Assembly: GCA_050259635.1 (NCBI GenBank)
Contig: JBLNBA010000002.1
Coordinates: 90,681 to 154,680, forward strand
DNA length: 64,000 bases
Source: Bacillota bacterium
GTDB lineage: Bacteria > Patescibacteriota > Patescibacteriia > Patescibacteriales > UBA12465
Reading direction: 5' to 3'
This document shows, one piece after another, positions 3,356 to 48,511 of this stretch (position 1 is its first letter; each line of letters begins with the position of its first letter). Under the pieces are notes generated by a model. The model worked only from the letters and a program-made list of their open reading frames with translations. It had not been told where the DNA came from and did not search any database. The position numbers and the translations under genes are program-made.

Positions 3356-4012
3356 ATGTTCAACGATCTCAATGCGCAAGGAAGTCAGGCAGTCGACGAT
3401 ATTTTCGCCGAAACTGATCGAAGCGGATCTCCGGCCGCTTCTAACATCGAAACCCAGCCAGCCGGCCTTTCTGCTCAATCATACGGAGAGCCCGAAGAGG
3501 ATAAGGGGGGAGGCTCAAAACTTAAGCTCATCTTAATCATTGTTTTAAGTGTTCTCATTCTCGGTGCCGCCGCTTACCTTGTGTATTCTAAATTTATGCG
3601 CCCGAGCGAAGATTTACCTTTGGAGGATCAGCAGACTCAGGTTCCGTCCGGACAAAATACTACAACCACCGCTCCGATAGTGGAGGATGATGTTGTAGTT
3701 CCTCAAGTCGAAGGTGAAGAAAGCACGGCTAGTAACACCGCGCCGATTGTCGGTAGTGATGCAAGCACCACGGTTGAAATGCCAGTGACGGCCGCCGTTG
3801 ATTCGGACGGCGACAGCCTCCTCGATAGTCAGGAGGAAGTTATCGGCACCAATCCGAACGTCATCGACTCGGATTTTGACGGCCTTTCCGATTACGAGGA
3901 ATCTACCGTTTATGGTACTAATCCTCTTAACCCAGACACTGATGGCGATACCTTTAAGGACGGGGATGAGGTTAAGAATGGCTATAATCCGAAGGGAGAT
4001 GGGAAACTCTAA
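3356..4012 (+). CDS. Membrane-anchored acidic protein with thrombospondin type-3-like Ca-binding repeats
   Basis: One TM helix, then DSDGDSLLD...GTNPNVIDSDFDGLSDYEE...GTNPLNPDTDGDTFKDGDE (repeated DxDxDG motif). Confidence 0.6.
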   Translation: MFNDLNAQGSQAVDDIFAETDRSGSPAASNIETQPAGLSAQSYGEPEEDKGGGSKLKLILIIVLSVLILGAAAYLVYSKFMRPSEDLPLEDQQTQVPSGQNTTTTAPIVEDDVVVPQVEGEESTASNTAPIVGSDASTTVEMPVTAAVDSDGDSLLDSQEEVIGTNPNVIDSDFDGLSDYEESTVYGTNPLNPDTDGDTFKDGDEVKNGYNPKGDGKL

Positions 4013-4020
4013 TTTGAACT

Positions 4021-4206
4021 ATGGACGGATTAAAGTCCACAAATAGGCGAAATGATGCCGGGCGAAAAGGAGTTAAGCTATATTTGCGCGTTCATGTTAT
4101 GCCGAAATTGAATATGCCGCTCAAAGGCAGGCCTTGGCAGTGGATTATCCCGGCTATCTTAATGGCACTTTTAGTGGTAGTGGCCCTATATTATTTTGCG
4201 GAGTAA
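4021..4206 (+). CDS. Possible small membrane protein; true start may be the internal Met at 4099
   Basis: C-terminal TM helix WQWIIPAILMALLVVVALYYF. Short, with no recognisable homology. Confidence 0.3.
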   Translation: MDGLKSTNRRNDAGRKGVKLYLRVHVMPKLNMPLKGRPWQWIIPAILMALLVVVALYYFAE

Positions 4207-14226: not shown

Positions 14227-14255
14227 TTGACAAAATAGTGGTAAAGTTCTAGGAT
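14227..14255 (+). promoter_or_regulatory. Sigma70-type promoter for the orphan gene at 14306
   Basis: TTGACA, 17 nt spacer, TAGGAT. Confidence 0.5.
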
Positions 14256-14305
14256 GTGAGGTCGCAAAGTGCGATATTTTTCTTTAACAACAAAAAATCA
14301 TAACA

Positions 14306-15397
14306 ATGGGAAAAGACCAAAATGAAGGGAGTCTTGGGCAAGGACTGGGACTCAGCATGGCTTTGCTGAAAGCAATGGCAGCAGCAGCTAAGAAAAATGA
14401 TCTGAACTTTGGAGAGATCCAAAAGATCATAGAAAATGACAGGATCGTTTATGAAGCGATTGACAGGATGGTTGCGGAACTAAAGCAGCCTGTCGTTATA
14501 AATGAGGGTCGTCGCTCGATAATTGAACCAACAAGAGGAAATAATGAATCATTTTCTAAATTGTTCGTTTCTTCTGATGATGTTAATTCTTGGTTAAGAG
14601 CTAATCATCCACCGACCGTGGCCACAAGAATATTAATGACAGATTTGGGTAGAAATTTGAGCTCCCTGGAAAAGTATCTGGACAGGCATACGGTGGAGCC
14701 GCAGCCGGAAAAATTTGCCTTTACACCTGATCAAATAATGTTAATCTGGGAGAAATATCTTAAAGGATATTTAAAAGATGATGCCCGGGCGCTTATATTG
14801 ACTAAGTATGAGGAATCTTACAGGTATATTGAGCTTAGAATTAAAGATATGAATCCTCATGCGAGAATGTTGGGGTTGCCGTCCGATTTCACAAATAATT
14901 TTAATTCTGTTTTTATTTGTCCTCATTTCCGCTTCTTTGGCATAGACAAGATGGTTAGGATATGGAAACAGAATATCCCGATTCCCAAACAACCGGAGCA
15001 TTCCAGAGTCAATGAATTCGGGCACGTTTGGCTACATGTAGATGAGAATTTTAATATGAGCGAATGCAAACCGTCAACCTTAACAGATGCCGCGGATACT
15101 TATTATTTGATTAAAAATTCTTATTCCTGGGCCGAAATCTTTTACGACATCAATCCGGATTTTAAGGAGATTGCTCTGACTATAAATGAAGCGCTCGCTC
15201 TTAATGAGGAATTAAAATACAACGATTACCCCATGGCCTACCTTATAGAGCAGAATGATAAGTTTTTCGTTCTTGAGTGTAAGCATAGTCTTGGCAATAT
15301 TAAGACCGGGAAGATCTGGAAATTAAGCGAAGGAGGAGCTTTAAACGTTAATGGTAATCACAAGATCATTACACGGGATAATTTCCTGCCTTTCTAG
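14306..15397 (+). CDS. Orphan protein (363 aa), AT-rich, monocistronic; weak paralog of the 47497 gene
   Basis: Long ORF with its own promoter, leader and terminator. Visibly lower GC than neighbours. No recognisable domain. Confidence 0.6.
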   Translation: MGKDQNEGSLGQGLGLSMALLKAMAAAAKKNDLNFGEIQKIIENDRIVYEAIDRMVAELKQPVVINEGRRSIIEPTRGNNESFSKLFVSSDDVNSWLRANHPPTVATRILMTDLGRNLSSLEKYLDRHTVEPQPEKFAFTPDQIMLIWEKYLKGYLKDDARALILTKYEESYRYIELRIKDMNPHARMLGLPSDFTNNFNSVFICPHFRFFGIDKMVRIWKQNIPIPKQPEHSRVNEFGHVWLHVDENFNMSECKPSTLTDAADTYYLIKNSYSWAEIFYDINPDFKEIALTINEALALNEELKYNDYPMAYLIEQNDKFFVLECKHSLGNIKTGKIWKLSEGGALNVNGNHKIITRDNFLPF

Positions 15398-15411: not shown

Positions 15412-15442
15412 GCCCCTGAATCTATCAATTCAGGGGCTTTTT
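15412..15442 (+). terminator. Intrinsic terminator of the orphan gene
   Basis: GCCCCTGAA-loop-TTCAGGGGC followed by TTTTT. Confidence 0.8.
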
Positions 15443-19238: not shown

Positions 19239-19970
19239 ATGATTATTGGCGGATTAGAAAAATTGACTCTCATAGATTATCCCGATAATCTCGCTGCGAT
19301 CGTCTTTACCCAAGGCTGCAATTTCCGCTGCCACTTCTGTTACAACCCTATGCTTGTCTGGCCCCGTACCGAAAAGCAGGAGCCTGACGAAACCCATAAA
19401 GGACAAGGTTTTCCTCCGATAAAGGAGGAGGACCTTTTTCTTTTTTTGGAGGAACGTCGAGGGAAGATAGACGGGGTAGTGATTACCGGCGGGGAACCGA
19501 CGCTTCATGCGGATCTTCCCGAGTTTATCCGACGGATAAAGGGCTTGGGGTATATCGTGAAACTTGATACTAACGGAACTAATCCTGGGATGCTCGAGCG
19601 CCTCATTGAGGAAGGTTTGGTGGATTATATCGCGATGGATCTAAAGGCTCCTTGGGAACACTATCATGAGGTGGTGGGGGTTCGGCCTGATTTAGGTAAT
19701 TTGCAGAAAAGTGTTAAAATGATAATGTCTTGCGGCCTTCCGTACGAATTCCGCAGCACTCTTCTTCCCGAGTTCCATGATGAAGAGGCTGTTGCGGCTA
19801 TGGGAGAAACAATTGCCGGAGCAAACCGCTGGTATTTGCAAAAATTTAAGCCTGATACCGATTTAGTGGACACGTCCTTCCAAGGGAAGAACACTTTTAC
19901 GGACAAGGCCTTAGAAGAGCTCGCGCTGATTGGCAGCAAATATGTCAAGGAGTGCCGAGCAAGAGTGTGA
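19239..19970 (+). CDS. nrdG: Anaerobic RNR activating radical-SAM enzyme
   Basis: CNFRCHFCYNP (CxxxCxxC) and GGEPT. I chose the ATG at 19239; the track TTG at 19158 overlaps the mini-ORF. Confidence 0.9.
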   Translation: MIIGGLEKLTLIDYPDNLAAIVFTQGCNFRCHFCYNPMLVWPRTEKQEPDETHKGQGFPPIKEEDLFLFLEERRGKIDGVVITGGEPTLHADLPEFIRRIKGLGYIVKLDTNGTNPGMLERLIEEGLVDYIAMDLKAPWEHYHEVVGVRPDLGNLQKSVKMIMSCGLPYEFRSTLLPEFHDEEAVAAMGETIAGANRWYLQKFKPDTDLVDTSFQGKNTFTDKALEELALIGSKYVKECRARV

Positions 19971-19971
19971 T

Positions 19972-20241
19972 ATGGAAGATAATAATAAGGTAGTAAGCGA
20001 ACCGTCCGATATCCATGAAGATCTCAAGGAGCTGCTCAAGCAGAACCTTGAGATTAGCAAGGACATGCAGGCTATGATCAAACATATCAATAGTTATGTG
20101 GCCTGGCAGAGGATTTTCGGGTGGTTGAAATTCATCCTGATCCTTATTCCGATTATAATCGGAGTCCTTTATCTGCCGCCTTTCATCCGGGAGGCTTATC
20201 GGGAGCTTATAAGCATTATTAAATCAGGTTCTGGTATCTAG
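19972..20241 (+). CDS. Small membrane protein, unknown function
   Basis: 89 aa from ATG 19972, with a coiled N-terminus and one TM helix WLKFILILIPIIIGVLYL. Starts 1 nt after the nrdG stop. Confidence 0.5.
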   Translation: MEDNNKVVSEPSDIHEDLKELLKQNLEISKDMQAMIKHINSYVAWQRIFGWLKFILILIPIIIGVLYLPPFIREAYRELISIIKSGSGI

Positions 20242-45499: not shown

Positions 45500-46066
45500 A
45501 TGAAAAAAGACTATAAAGGGTTGATTACCGGTTTCTATAAAGAGAAGCGCCGGATGCCGGATTATGCGGAGATGATGCATCTCTTGGATTTCCGTTCCAA
45601 GAATGCGGTCTTTAAGCTAGTGAACCGGCTGGAAACTGAAAATTTCTTAGAGAAGGACGGAAAGGGAAAGCTTATCCCAAAGAATATTTTCGGGGAGCTG
45701 AAAGTTTTGGGCCAAGTGGAGGCGGGCTTCCCTTCGCCGGCGGAAGAAGAATTGGCGGATACTATGAGTTTGGATGATTTTCTGATCAAAAATAAGGAGG
45801 CGACCTATCTCTTAAAGGTGAGCGGTGATTCCATGAGAGATGCCGGCATTATGCCGGGGGACATGGTGCTTGTCGACCGCAGCCTTACCCCGACGGATGG
45901 AAATATTGTCATTGCCGAGGTAGACAAGCAATGGACAGTGAAATATTTTCGCAAGAGGGGAAAGGAAATATATCTAGAACCGGCGAACAAGAATTTTCCT
46001 ATCATCCGTCCGACGGAAGAATTGCGGATTGCCGCCGTAGTGAAGGCAGTCATCCGTAAATATTGA
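45500..46066 (+). CDS. lexA: LexA repressor
   Basis: N-terminal wHTH, cleavage region VEAGFP, S24 peptidase GDSM...K. Confidence 0.9.
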   Translation: MKKDYKGLITGFYKEKRRMPDYAEMMHLLDFRSKNAVFKLVNRLETENFLEKDGKGKLIPKNIFGELKVLGQVEAGFPSPAEEELADTMSLDDFLIKNKEATYLLKVSGDSMRDAGIMPGDMVLVDRSLTPTDGNIVIAEVDKQWTVKYFRKRGKEIYLEPANKNFPIIRPTEELRIAAVVKAVIRKY

Positions 46067-46067
46067 T

Positions 46068-47372
46068 ATGCCGCTTTCAATCTCATCTTTTCCGCAAGCC
46101 ATTCTCCACGTGGACGGGGATTGCTTTTTTGCCTCCTGCGAAATCGCTCGGCGTCCGGAGCTCAAAGGCCGTCCAGTGGTTACGGGGCTGGAGAGAGGAA
46201 TCGTGTCCTCTCTTACCTATGAAGCGAAAGCGAGAGGGGTGAAAAGAGCAATGCCTTTTTGGGAGGTGAAGAAGATCTGTCCCGAGGTCGTTTTTTTGCC
46301 TTCCGATTATGAATCATACAGCCTGTATTCGATGCGGATGTTCAATATTGTCCGACGCTTCACGCCGGAGGTGGAGGAATATAGCATCGATGAATGTTTT
46401 GCCGATCTTACCGGTTTGCGCCGTCCTTTGCGCATGAGCTATCCCGAGATGGCAGAGAAGATAAAGGCAGAGCTGGATAGCGAGCTGGGTTTTACCTTTT
46501 CCGTGGGCTTAGCCCCGACCAAGGTTCTGGCTAAGATCGGATCCAAATGGAAGAAGCCCTCCGGTCTCACCGTCATCTCCGGAAGGGAGATAGAGAAGTT
46601 CCTAGCTCCGCTCGAAGCCGGGAAAGTTTGGGGCATCGGGCCGCAGACCGCAGCACTCCTCGCCAAATACGGAGTGCGTACGGCCTTGGATTTCGTCCGC
46701 CATGATTTAGATTGGGTGAAAGTCAGGCTTACCAAGCCTCATATTGAGATCTGGCGGGAGCTGCGCGGAGAATCTGTTTATCCGATCGATACGGCAAGGA
46801 GGGAATCATATCAGTCTATCAGTAAGACAAAGACTTTTACGCCGCCTTCCGCGGATGCCGGGTATGTCTTTAGCCAGTTGTCCAAGAACGTGGAGAATGC
46901 CTGCATCAAGCTCAGGCGTCATCATTTGGCGGCTAAGAAGGTTTTCTTCTTCCTCAAGACCCAAGATTTCCGTTATCACGGTTATGAGTTTAAGCTTATG
47001 CGCCTGACAGATAATCCGGTAGAGATCATCGCCATGATCCGGCAGTATTTTGACTCTGTTTTCAGGGAAGCATCCCAATTTAGGGCCACGGGAATCGTCC
47101 TGATGGATATCGGAGAAAATAGTTGCCGCCAAGCAGACCTATTCAATGAAGTGGCCAGGGCGGAGAAGATCTCTAAGATCTTCGGAAGCGTGGACGGAAT
47201 CGCCAAGAGGTATGGGAAGCATACGATGTTCCTCGGCTCCAGCTTCTCGGCCATGAAGCGCCCCCAGCATGAGAATAGCCGCCAAGAGGCACCTGAGCGG
47301 AAGAGGGAGTTGTTCAAGGGAGAAACGAAAAGGAAGCGGCTGGCTATTCCATATTTGGGAGAAACTTGCTAA
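46068..47372 (+). CDS. dinB: Y-family DNA polymerase IV
   Basis: ILHVDGDCFFASCE, SIDECFADLTG. Starts 1 nt after the lexA stop. Confidence 0.9.
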   Translation: MPLSISSFPQAILHVDGDCFFASCEIARRPELKGRPVVTGLERGIVSSLTYEAKARGVKRAMPFWEVKKICPEVVFLPSDYESYSLYSMRMFNIVRRFTPEVEEYSIDECFADLTGLRRPLRMSYPEMAEKIKAELDSELGFTFSVGLAPTKVLAKIGSKWKKPSGLTVISGREIEKFLAPLEAGKVWGIGPQTAALLAKYGVRTALDFVRHDLDWVKVRLTKPHIEIWRELRGESVYPIDTARRESYQSISKTKTFTPPSADAGYVFSQLSKNVENACIKLRRHHLAAKKVFFFLKTQDFRYHGYEFKLMRLTDNPVEIIAMIRQYFDSVFREASQFRATGIVLMDIGENSCRQADLFNEVARAEKISKIFGSVDGIAKRYGKHTMFLGSSFSAMKRPQHENSRQEAPERKRELFKGETKRKRLAIPYLGETC

Positions 47373-47496
47373 ATTCATGGATTGACAAGATATCATAAAT
47401 GTTTTAAAGTATAATATTACTTAAATAATTTTTTGGGTAATACTCAATTTCGCTGGGAGAAGTGCGAAAGTTTCTTTAACAAAATACTGGTGCAAA

Positions 47497-48129
47497 ATGA
47501 ATAAAAATGACAACACTGGTCTCGGTCTCATCAAAACAACCATTGAGAGGGCCCAAAATGAAAAATCGCTGTTTAATAGCGCTCTGAAAAAACTCGTCAA
47601 TTCGACGGAAGAAGAATTAGCTGATTTCCTGAAGAAGAAGATGGAAAAAAATGCTATTGGTAATCTTTGCTGTATTTCCGGCAAAGAAATGATAATGATT
47701 GAGGCTCTCGATGGCAAAGCGTATATCTCTAATGCCAAGAAGACATTCAAATCTGGCATTGATGAAGATTTCAAAAAATGGGGACTTAATCAATCCGGTC
47801 TGGCCACTGCTGAAACATTGTTTGATGTGAGCGAAATGTCCGCCGACGGAACCTTCACCCAAATTTTTACCGGCATTACTTCCGATCTAGACAAAATCGT
47901 CATGACACAGGCTCAAATTATACGCTTCTGCGAAAAATACCCTACCTGGCTCCGTCACTACGCTACCTTCTTCCTAACGAAGGTCCGTGGAAAATATTTC
48001 GTGGTCTACGTGTACGTGCGTTTGGACGGTCTGTATGTCAGCGTAGGTCTCTTTGAGCGTGACGTTATCTGGTATGGCGGGGGTCGTCATCGCGTTGTTT
48101 CCCCACAACTTATTCCTTTGCCCGAATAG
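47497..48129 (+). CDS. Orphan protein (210 aa), AT-rich, monocistronic; weak paralog of the 14306 gene
   Basis: Own promoter (TTGACA at 47382), leader hairpin and terminator (48153-48208). No recognisable domain. Confidence 0.55.
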   Translation: MNKNDNTGLGLIKTTIERAQNEKSLFNSALKKLVNSTEEELADFLKKKMEKNAIGNLCCISGKEMIMIEALDGKAYISNAKKTFKSGIDEDFKKWGLNQSGLATAETLFDVSEMSADGTFTQIFTGITSDLDKIVMTQAQIIRFCEKYPTWLRHYATFFLTKVRGKYFVVYVYVRLDGLYVSVGLFERDVIWYGGGRHRVVSPQLIPLPE

Positions 48130-48256
48130 TTCTCAAAGTCATCTCTTCTTTGTCCCTTGGATTCTTTCCTAGTTTAATACTAAGAGCTAGAATTCCGAGG
48201 GATTTTTTATAAGAAGACAAAAATAGGGGTAATATCGAGCAATTTTTGCAAATTCG

Positions 48257-48285
48257 TTGACTTTTTGAGCCTAGAAGGCTAAACT
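48257..48285 (+). promoter_or_regulatory. Sigma70-type promoter upstream of the Cys-rich smORF
   Basis: TTGACT, 17 nt spacer, TAAACT. Confidence 0.55.
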
Positions 48286-48319: not shown

Positions 48320-48457
48320 ATGTGCAAATGCGCTTGGTTAAAGAGATTGTTCGGAATTAAGAAAGAATGTTGCTGCCACAGTCATGAGCAGGTCGCAACT
48401 ACTCCCGCTCCAGAGACCCCTAAGGCTCCGGAAGCTCCGGTGATGGAACAAAAGTAA
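48320..48457 (+). CDS. Unannotated 45-aa Cys/His-rich small ORF
   Basis: My own translation: MCKCAWLKRLFGIKKECCCHSHEQVATTPAPETPKAPEAPVMEQK. It is bracketed by a good promoter and a strong terminator. Confidence 0.4.
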   Translation: MCKCAWLKRLFGIKKECCCHSHEQVATTPAPETPKAPEAPVMEQK

Positions 48458-48470
48458 GAACGATCAAATT

Positions 48471-48497
48471 AAAAAAACGCGCATTCCGCGTTTTTTT
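48471..48497 (+). terminator. Intrinsic terminator after the smORF
   Basis: AAAAAAACGCG-cattc-CGCGTTTTTTT. Confidence 0.8.
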
Positions 48498-48511
48498 ATC
48501 ATTAAACACTT

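Follow-up and report, generated by a model that had tools for sequence, protein, structure and literature searches.

The stretch of DNA analysed here (64,000 nucleotides, positions 90,681 to 154,680 of contig JBLNBA010000002.1; hereafter the window) carries two forward-strand genes for hypothetical proteins. ORF-A (47497..48129; 210 aa) is located between lexA-dinB (45500..47372) and a small Cys-rich open reading frame (ORF) followed by tatD, and ORF-B (14306..15397; 363 aa) is located after ftsA-ftsZ. Both were present as described in the initial annotation, which had been made from the letters of the window and had also called them AT-richer than their neighbours. This was confirmed by their GC content (43.4% for ORF-A and 39.6% for ORF-B versus 48.2% for the whole window and 46–52% for neighbouring genes) and by GC at third codon positions (0.48 and 0.42, respectively, versus 0.54–0.62 for the neighbours). 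As set out below, ORF-A very probably belongs, as a stand-alone gene, to a family of variable proteins of diversity-generating retroelements (DGRs) that is specific to Patescibacteria, with ORF-B as its distant, non-variable derivative.

At least 167 homologues of ORF-A were found (E ≤ 0.01), typically 45–75% identical to it; they come from Patescibacteria-type assemblies throughout, all are unannotated, and none contains a Pfam domain. In the alignment, a C-terminal region of ~150 aa is strongly conserved, and the N-terminal 50–60 aa are of three kinds: type 1, that of ORF-A (M.K.DNTGLGLIKTTIER..); type 2, the kind present in ORF-B (MEKSSQNPSFGQGLEL....KAIASAAKK..); and type 3 (MATKQQ..). The core of ORF-A includes an invariant TQxQIIxFCEK helix. 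None of the family members has a hydrophobic N-terminal segment, which fits the finding that the DGR targets of “clade 2” in the Candidate Phyla Radiation (CPR) typically contain no transmembrane or known domains (Roux et al. 2021, PMC8144416).

Scanning of GTDB species-representative genomes yielded 40 loci of the family. Every one is of Patescibacteria type; Falkowbacteria is the title of many, and some are evidently mislabelled. Locus L001, part of a JGI contig of 162 kb, has two family genes in tandem, after which come a bAvd gene on the opposite strand and then an RVT_1 reverse transcriptase (RT) gene. This locus has three copies of a 173-nt sequence: each family gene carries one at its 3′ end, and the third, which lies between the family genes and avd, translates to FVVNVNVNSDGLNVNVNRLENDNVWDGENRHRVVSPQL, with Asn codons (AAY) at precisely the positions that vary among family members. 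In 17 of the 40 genome loci, the family gene has genes for Avd and RT (59–84% identical to those of L001) no further than ~1.5 kb downstream, and a template repeat (TR), an antisense avd and an RT gene directly 3′ of the family gene were found in 17 of the 40 genome loci and in two metagenome loci. The closest homologue of ORF-A, P0002 (73% identical), is encoded in such a locus, L042, which consists of two targets, TR, avd and RT; more widely, ORF-A is 45–76% identical to the TR-followed genes of L001–L005, L009–L011, L017, L020, L028, L029 and L042. Thirteen TRs and 37 variable region (VR) blocks of 114 nt were extracted for comparison. In the 17 cognate TR/VR pairs, 238 of the 254 mismatches fell at TR adenines, which make up ~23% of the TR, and 16 fell elsewhere. 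Adenine-specific mismatches between TR and VR are the defining signature of DGR mutagenic retrohoming, and the family is therefore a DGR target; the adenine bias on which this family-level claim depends is present in the repeats of the relatives.

The block of ORF-A that aligns with these TRs (47998–48111) was then compared at adenine-templated sites (A-sites) and at the remaining sites. Relative to the consensus TR, which is not the cognate TR of ORF-A, 15 of 26 A-sites (58%) but 9 of 88 non-A sites (10%) differ; the identical sites number 11 of 26 and 79 of 88 (Fisher p = 2e-6). Relative to the orthologue in the syntenic metagenome locus L045, 6 of 26 A-sites and 77 of 88 non-A sites are identical (Fisher p = 1e-9). 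Equal divergence of the block from the family TRs at A and non-A sites is thus not the case. At the positions where the TRs encode Asn, the codons of ORF-A all have the form NNY (TAC, TAC, CGT, TAT, AGC, GGT, CGT, GTT and TAT). Judged from these sequence patterns, diversification of ORF-A by a DGR at some point in its history seems highly likely.

The initial annotation had taken the two genes for a lineage-specific, co-regulated orphan family of unknown function that is expanding beside core operons. Such a view, with a family unrelated to known systems, is in keeping with the low GC of both genes, with the leader motif common to them and with the results of database comparisons: when ORF-A, ORF-B and 31 members of the family were scanned against Pfam, NCBIfam, PHROGs and PADLOC, no match rose above noise, and sequence searches of the PDB with the family profile and with a profile of the N-terminal module gave low-complexity helical proteins only. 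It is nevertheless very improbable. The homologues of ORF-A are spread across Patescibacteria, so the gene is no orphan; the family is linked to DGR cassettes both in physical location and in its mutation pattern; and the window holds only two members, which does not accord with a private family expanding in one genome. The statement that no known domain could be assigned stood as far as the databases are concerned, but the family itself can be assigned to DGR targets. The guess at a host-interaction or conflict role went in the right direction. Two further ideas found no support: a phage origin (2 matches in 2.9 million viral contigs) and a reading of the N-terminal G(L/Q)GL motif as a targeting peptide of encapsulin or secretion type.

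Among 80 metagenome loci surveyed for their close relatives of DinB, the order lexA, dinB, family gene, Cys-rich small ORF, tatD, atpB was found in one, the closest (L045; DinB 83% and TatD 88% identical), which is likewise without a cassette; the more distant relatives have a different synteny altogether. The description of both genes as inserted beside core operons held in part, since both adjoin core operons and evolve fast there, but a clean presence/absence difference was not shown, L045 having the same dinB-X-tatD arrangement. The family protein of this relative, P0019 (L045 3095–3751), begins with an unrelated type-3 module (MATKQQ...). Its gene is 40% identical to ORF-A in nucleotide sequence in the N-terminal module versus 79% in the core and 73% in the VR, which argues that the N-terminal module was swapped at ~47665 and that recombination exchanges the modules preceding the variable domain. 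Intragenic recombination has also been suggested by the modular make-up of DGR targets (PMC8144416).

Substitution rates differed between the parts of the gene. In the core, the proportions of nonsynonymous (pN) and synonymous (pS) differences between ORF-A and its L045 orthologue were 0.107 and 0.447 (dN/dS 0.17, and 0.12 against P0002), and the ORF-A protein is functional and in use because its core is under purifying selection. In the VR, pN was 0.31 and pS 0.17, with 5 synonymous differences in 29 sites (p = 0.004 versus the core rate of 0.45). For dinB, tatD, ftsZ and ftsA, pN between the genomes was 0.03–0.11 and pS ~0.8, with synonymous sites saturated. The core pS of 0.45 is far below that of the neighbours, and the gene copies are younger than the split of the genomes; other members of the family may have been their source, through conversion or transfer. 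In the VR, the non-A and silent sites stay near the clade-wide TR and the A-templated sites are scrambled, exactly as templating from a conserved TR predicts. We infer that a DGR rewrote ORF-A after its core had diverged from those of its closest relatives.

By analogy with canonical loci, in which a TR just downstream is transcribed and then reverse-transcribed by the DGR RT together with Avd, with adenines being miscopied and the cDNA replacing the VR, the binding surface of ORF-A would be a product of mutagenic retrohoming. The protein has three parts. An N-terminal module of ~55 aa is helical and swappable, a core of ~110 aa is of alpha/beta type and conserved, and the C-terminal 38 aa (aa 168–205) form the VR. 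The VR is predicted to adopt a beta-hairpin and a loop; every other residue varies, which would put the variable ones on one side. ORF-A is most likely a small ligand-binding protein, predicted to be soluble or peripherally attached. Whether the anchor-less DGR targets of CPR are truly non-membrane proteins remains to be established (Roux et al. 2021, PMC8144416).

An AlphaFold2 model of ORF-A built from a 31-sequence alignment had a predicted local distance difference test score (pLDDT) above 90 for aa 70–200 and low confidence for the N-terminal helices. Its elements are a beta-strand at 107–114, helices at 120–125 and 138–147, strands at 157–163, 166–175 and 178–185, a loop, and a strand at 199–203. 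Variable residues 171/173/175 on one strand of the hairpin and 180/182/184 on the other are at alternating positions and should therefore lie on one of its faces; variable residues 188, 190, 193, 195 and 196 would, from the secondary structure, fall in the subsequent loop around the invariant W192. This order of predicted elements fits a minimal C-type-lectin (CLec) fold. In the CLec fold of DGR proteins, a beta1/beta5 pair and two helices are combined with a beta2-beta3-beta4 sheet, and variability begins at beta3 and stops before beta5 (PMC5006420). Solved structures are those of Mtd (Bordetella phage BPP-1), TvpA (Treponema), AvpA (Nanoarchaeota) and TaqVP (Thermus) (PMC5006420, PMC6328139). 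The order predicted for ORF-A (beta1, alpha1, alpha2, beta2, beta3, beta4, loop, beta5) agrees with the published description of this fold, and like the ORF-A family, with its W192, CLec DGR proteins have an invariant aromatic residue within the VR and AAY variable codons in the TR. Unlike them, ORF-A has no sequence match to the CLec or FGE-sulfatase families, its domain is much smaller than the solved ones and has no inserts, and the VR motif of its family (VxVxVxSDGLxVxVxRLExDxVW) differs from the published CLec VR classes.

Several observations weigh against the assignment of ORF-A to DGR variable proteins. No copy of a TR was found in the 64-kb window by blastn (word size 7), and a cognate TR/VR pair of ORF-A was not observed. 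Neither RT nor Avd was detected by tblastn in the window, which extends 47 kb upstream and 16 kb downstream of ORF-A, and none of the 120 best homologues of a family-linked RT (at least 64% identical) could be traced to the same contig or metagenome-assembled genome (MAG). Three changes in ORF-A, S176L, R185L and V191I, are at positions fixed in all 13 TRs, and they suggest drift since the last homing event. Finally, the Foldseek comparison that the initial annotation had proposed gave nothing below E = 0.2 for the ORF-A model in the PDB and BFVD; among the sub-threshold matches were the C-type-lectin chains 7qaj_B, 1ukm_B and 3whd_A (TM 0.24–0.40).

Two accounts of the present state of ORF-A have to be weighed in the light of these observations. 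One, to which we give an even chance or slightly better, is that ORF-A is a frozen former target: the gene, its leader and its 3′ hairpin would have been copied or converted from a DGR locus, contact with the retroelement would then have been lost, and ORF-A would now evolve as an ordinary gene with one fixed specificity. The lack of a cassette in the window and the scaffold substitutions at TR-fixed positions are in line with this account, as are the continued purifying selection on the core, which implies a protein in use, and the fact that about half of the family loci have no RT within 10 kb. The N-terminal swap and the low pS of the core relative to the neighbours further suggest that the locus was renewed by recombination and not by homing alone. 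An Arg at VR position 18 suggests drift in other copies as well: it is invariant in 13 of 13 TRs and in all cassette-linked VRs and is replaced (by L, H or C) in solitary copies alone, namely those of the window, L045, L012 and L025, which are all without an adjacent cassette. Solitary copies thus seem to drift at template-fixed positions. What a frozen copy explains less well is that the silent sites of the VR are more conserved than those of the core, since this would be easier to understand if templating had outlasted the divergence of the core.

That conservation, extending to the non-A sites of the VR, which together with the silent sites show better conservation than the remainder of the gene, is accommodated by the other account, in which ORF-A is an active remote target. 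A TR-avd-RT cassette elsewhere in the genome would rewrite 47998–48111 in trans and would recognise its target by the VR's conserved end and by the hairpin downstream of it. We regard this as possible, at somewhat below an even chance. The A-templated sites are fully randomised between the syntenic orthologues, the 3′ hairpin is kept in ORF-A, and in L018, likewise a solitary copy, the differences from a heterologous TR include only 2 at non-A sites. Remote targets are also documented for other DGRs (PMC5758913), and in the cases summarised there, such as that of Treponema denticola, a gene with a VR and a downstream hairpin likewise lies away from RT and TR. In those summarised cases, however, the cognate TR was identified and the differences from it are confined to adenines, whereas the comparison for ORF-A is with the TRs of relatives alone, and targets more than 100 kb from the RT were found only outside the CPR set (PMC5758913). 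The absence of a cassette from the flanks of ORF-A in the window, the failure to trace a matching RT, among the 120 best homologues, to its contig or MAG, the non-A scaffold changes unique to ORF-A (R185L and others) and the loss of the invariant Arg in solitary copies only also argue against present retrohoming. Whichever account applies, the solitary copy and its syntenic orthologue constitute a natural experiment on the action of CPR DGRs in trans on distant targets, and surveys anchored on RT genes would overlook about half of the loci of this family because these have no adjacent RT.

A dedicated DGR clade is present in CPR/Patescibacteria (PMC8144416), and several CPR variable regions are unclassified (PMC5758913). 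The ORF-A family resembles the clade 2 targets in its host group, in a C-terminal VR that in relatives is templated by an adjacent TR with AAY (Asn) codons, in the RT and Avd cassette of those relatives, in its modular N-terminal parts, and in having no transmembrane segment, signal peptide or known domain; unlike the canonical targets of this group, the copy in the window has no cassette nearby. By description only, the family can be set beside the published unclassified “UVR” classes of CPR (Wu et al. 2018, PMC5758913). The assignment of this family and of the solitary copy makes two hypothetical proteins interpretable, one as a retroelement-diversified binding protein (predicted) and the other as its degenerate relative. 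The 210-aa family is compact and confidently modelled, comprises numerous sequences and has a clear face of variable residues, and is thus tractable for structural and ligand work.

For the relationship between ORF-A and ORF-B, pairwise BLASTP gave a marginal alignment of A88–202 with B245–356 (E = 0.018). A family profile built from an alignment of 31 ORF-A homologues matched ORF-B with 38.1 bits, compared with a maximum of 9.4 bits in 2000 ORF-B shuffles (the highest across the four profiles tested). The match is collinear, with profile positions 3–187 on B 3–180, and a second copy of the core (profile 105–191) lies on B 249–332. The bulk of the signal came from the N-terminal module, whose profile matched B 4–60 with 30.5 bits (maximum of 2000 shuffles, 7.5); a core-plus-VR profile gave 21.2 bits. 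Among 498 six-frame ORFs of the window, the family profile matched ORF-A (E = 9e-101) and ORF-B (E = 3e-11) alone. A phmmer search of 1.84 billion representative proteins with ORF-B returned ORF-B itself, one orthologue, P0122 (45% identical), and four proteins of the ORF-A family, the best of which was P0123 (E = 4.5e-7). The profile score and the restriction of the phmmer relatives to the ORF-A family show that ORF-A and ORF-B are genuine distant paralogues. The collinear weak similarity from which the initial annotation had proposed paralogy is thereby supported, as is the significant profile relationship on which that proposal was to stand or fall. The block it had singled out, A136–176/B139–180, does fall inside the collinear match, but it is the weakest part (~6 bits) and is not the block aligned by BLASTP.

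The orthologue P0122 holds the same place in a relative, in the order ftsA, ftsZ, X, GT2, nrdR, nrdD. ORF-B is 44% identical to it, with a pN of 0.36, versus 96% and 0.03 for FtsZ; in this comparison (with L044 3317–4405) the nonsynonymous rate of ORF-B is ~10-fold that of ftsZ and ftsA (pN 0.03–0.05), and position and frame are kept. The middle part, aa 61–240, is 28% identical to the orthologue, and the C-terminal hairpin region shows ordinary substitutions. No VR-like block was found in ORF-B, and no Asn/NNY variable signature in its second core repeat. Near ORF-B, no TR, RT or Avd was found in the window, and none was called in the loci of the orthologue. The AlphaFold model of ORF-B (pLDDT 41) was too poor for use. 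From its sequence, the best description of ORF-B is that it derives from the DGR target family, evolves fast without being diversified, has become fixed downstream of ftsZ and contains two degenerate copies of the core; a tie to cell division would have its position alone as a basis. A more far-reaching combination, which we consider unlikely, is that the family represents a new minimal DGR scaffold other than the C-type lectin, with a beta-hairpin “display face”, a cytoplasmic or peripheral location and no export signal, that Patescibacteria repeatedly detach such genes and fix them beside core operons, and that ORF-B was exapted after duplication for a non-variable, conserved role linked to ftsA-ftsZ.

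Table 1. Positions in the window of the elements of ORF-B and ORF-A
Element	Position	Strand	Description
ORF-B promoter-like site and leader	14227..14290	+	Hairpin GTCGCAAAGTGCGAT, then TTTCTTTAACAA
ORF-B N-terminal module	14306..14485	+	aa 1–60; homologous to type 2 (..SFGQGLEL.....KAIA.AAKK..); 30.5 bits
ORF-B core repeat 1	14690..14851	+	aa 129–182; weak match to family core, 6.2 bits
ORF-B core repeat 2	15047..15307	+	aa 248–334; better match, core and hairpin, 12.9 bits
ORF-B intrinsic terminator	15412..15437	+	Strong, stem of 10–11 bp
ORF-A promoter-like site	47382..47410	+	TTGACA, 17 nt, TAAAGT; 10/12 consensus match only
ORF-A leader element common to ORF-B	47448..47482	+	Weak hairpin (TTTCGC...GCGAAA) with AAGTGCGA, then TTTCTTTAACAA
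ORF-A N-terminal helical module, type 1	47497..47664	+	aa 1–56; swappable
ORF-A conserved alpha/beta core	47665..47997	+	aa 57–167; pLDDT > 90; dN/dS 0.12–0.17
ORF-A VR equivalent	47998..48111	+	aa 168–205, FVVYVYVRLDGLYVSVGLFERDVIWYGGGRHRVVSPQL; codon-for-codon alignment with family TRs FVVNVNVNSDGLNVNVNRLENDNVWNGEYRHRVVSPQL
ORF-A 3′ hairpin and U-run	48152..48210	+	Homologous to hairpin after the VR in 20 aligned family 3′ flanks

The conserved leader claimed for both genes was found: each has AAGTGCGA and then the exact 12-mer TTTCTTTAACAA immediately 5′ of the ATG, and this 12-mer occurs twice in the whole window, solely at these two leaders. The hairpin part of the ORF-A leader is conserved in L045. 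An attenuator or riboswitch was dropped as an explanation, the leader hairpins of both genes being no more stable than shuffles, and an Rfam scan of the window gave tRNAs only, which sets the leader apart from the known RNA families. A TTGACA promoter for each gene was also part of the initial annotation. Both sites exist (that of ORF-B, at 14227–14255, is TTGACA, 17 nt, TAGGAT, a 10/12 match), and the TTGACA of ORF-A is kept in L045, but matches of TTGACA, 17 nt and a hexamer are no more frequent in the window than in shuffles and are thus weak evidence. Monocistronic transcription is plausible, although no terminator follows the dinB stop (47372) ahead of ORF-A, specifically in 47372–47382 before its promoter-like site; transcripts of the lexA-dinB (SOS-type) operon could continue into ORF-A.

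A strong terminator was correctly placed after each gene. That of ORF-A is an imperfect hairpin (48152–48203, −22 kcal/mol) followed by U6, which a simple terminator scan had overlooked. A homologous hairpin (TCCCTYGGA...TCCGRGGGA and an inner stem) followed by a U-run is present after all 21 aligned family 3′ flanks, including that of ORF-A, and in this alignment 3 of the 8 pairs of the outer stem show compensatory changes. What comes after the hairpin in cassette loci is GTATAAT and, next, the TR; the homology of the window to these loci stops at the U-run. A hairpin or cruciform after the VR serves for target recognition in other DGRs (Guo et al. 2011 as cited in PMC8144416 and PMC5006420), and by analogy the hairpin 3′ of the VR may be a terminator, a DGR target-recognition structure or both.

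In the cassette loci with a recovered TR block, the gene between the TR and that for the RT is avd, in opposite orientation (L001 9816–11319 and its equivalents in L002–L005, L009–L011, L017, L020, L028, L029 and L042). The TR there is followed by a conserved hairpin (CTCCTTCG...CGAGGGAG) and a U-run, and any transcript from TR to RT would cross avd antisense.

A third weak match of the family profile in the window, at 19930–20241 (+), is a small membrane protein and not a family member, the match being due to chance. This protein (...WQRIFGWLKFILILIPIIIGVLYLPPFIREAY..SGSGI) is conserved in L043 (5975–6226), 5′ of a gene resembling that for a type IV secretion system coupling protein, and the gene after 19930–20241 was called coupling-protein-like by synteny with L043.

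The Cys-rich small ORF that separates ORF-A from tatD (48320–48457, +; 45 aa; MCKCAWLKRLFGIKKECCCHSHE...) has its own promoter-like site at 48257–48285 and a hairpin with a T-run at ~48475–48500, and its counterpart is kept in L045 at 3959–4099 (MCKCAWLKKIFSCKENCCCHAHE...). The MAG of the window is labelled “Bacillota bacterium” at NCBI, and many of the related GTDB loci are titled “uncultured Gammaproteobacteria”. Both titles are likely taxonomic mislabels, the gene content and all named relatives being of Patescibacteria (Falkowbacteria and others).

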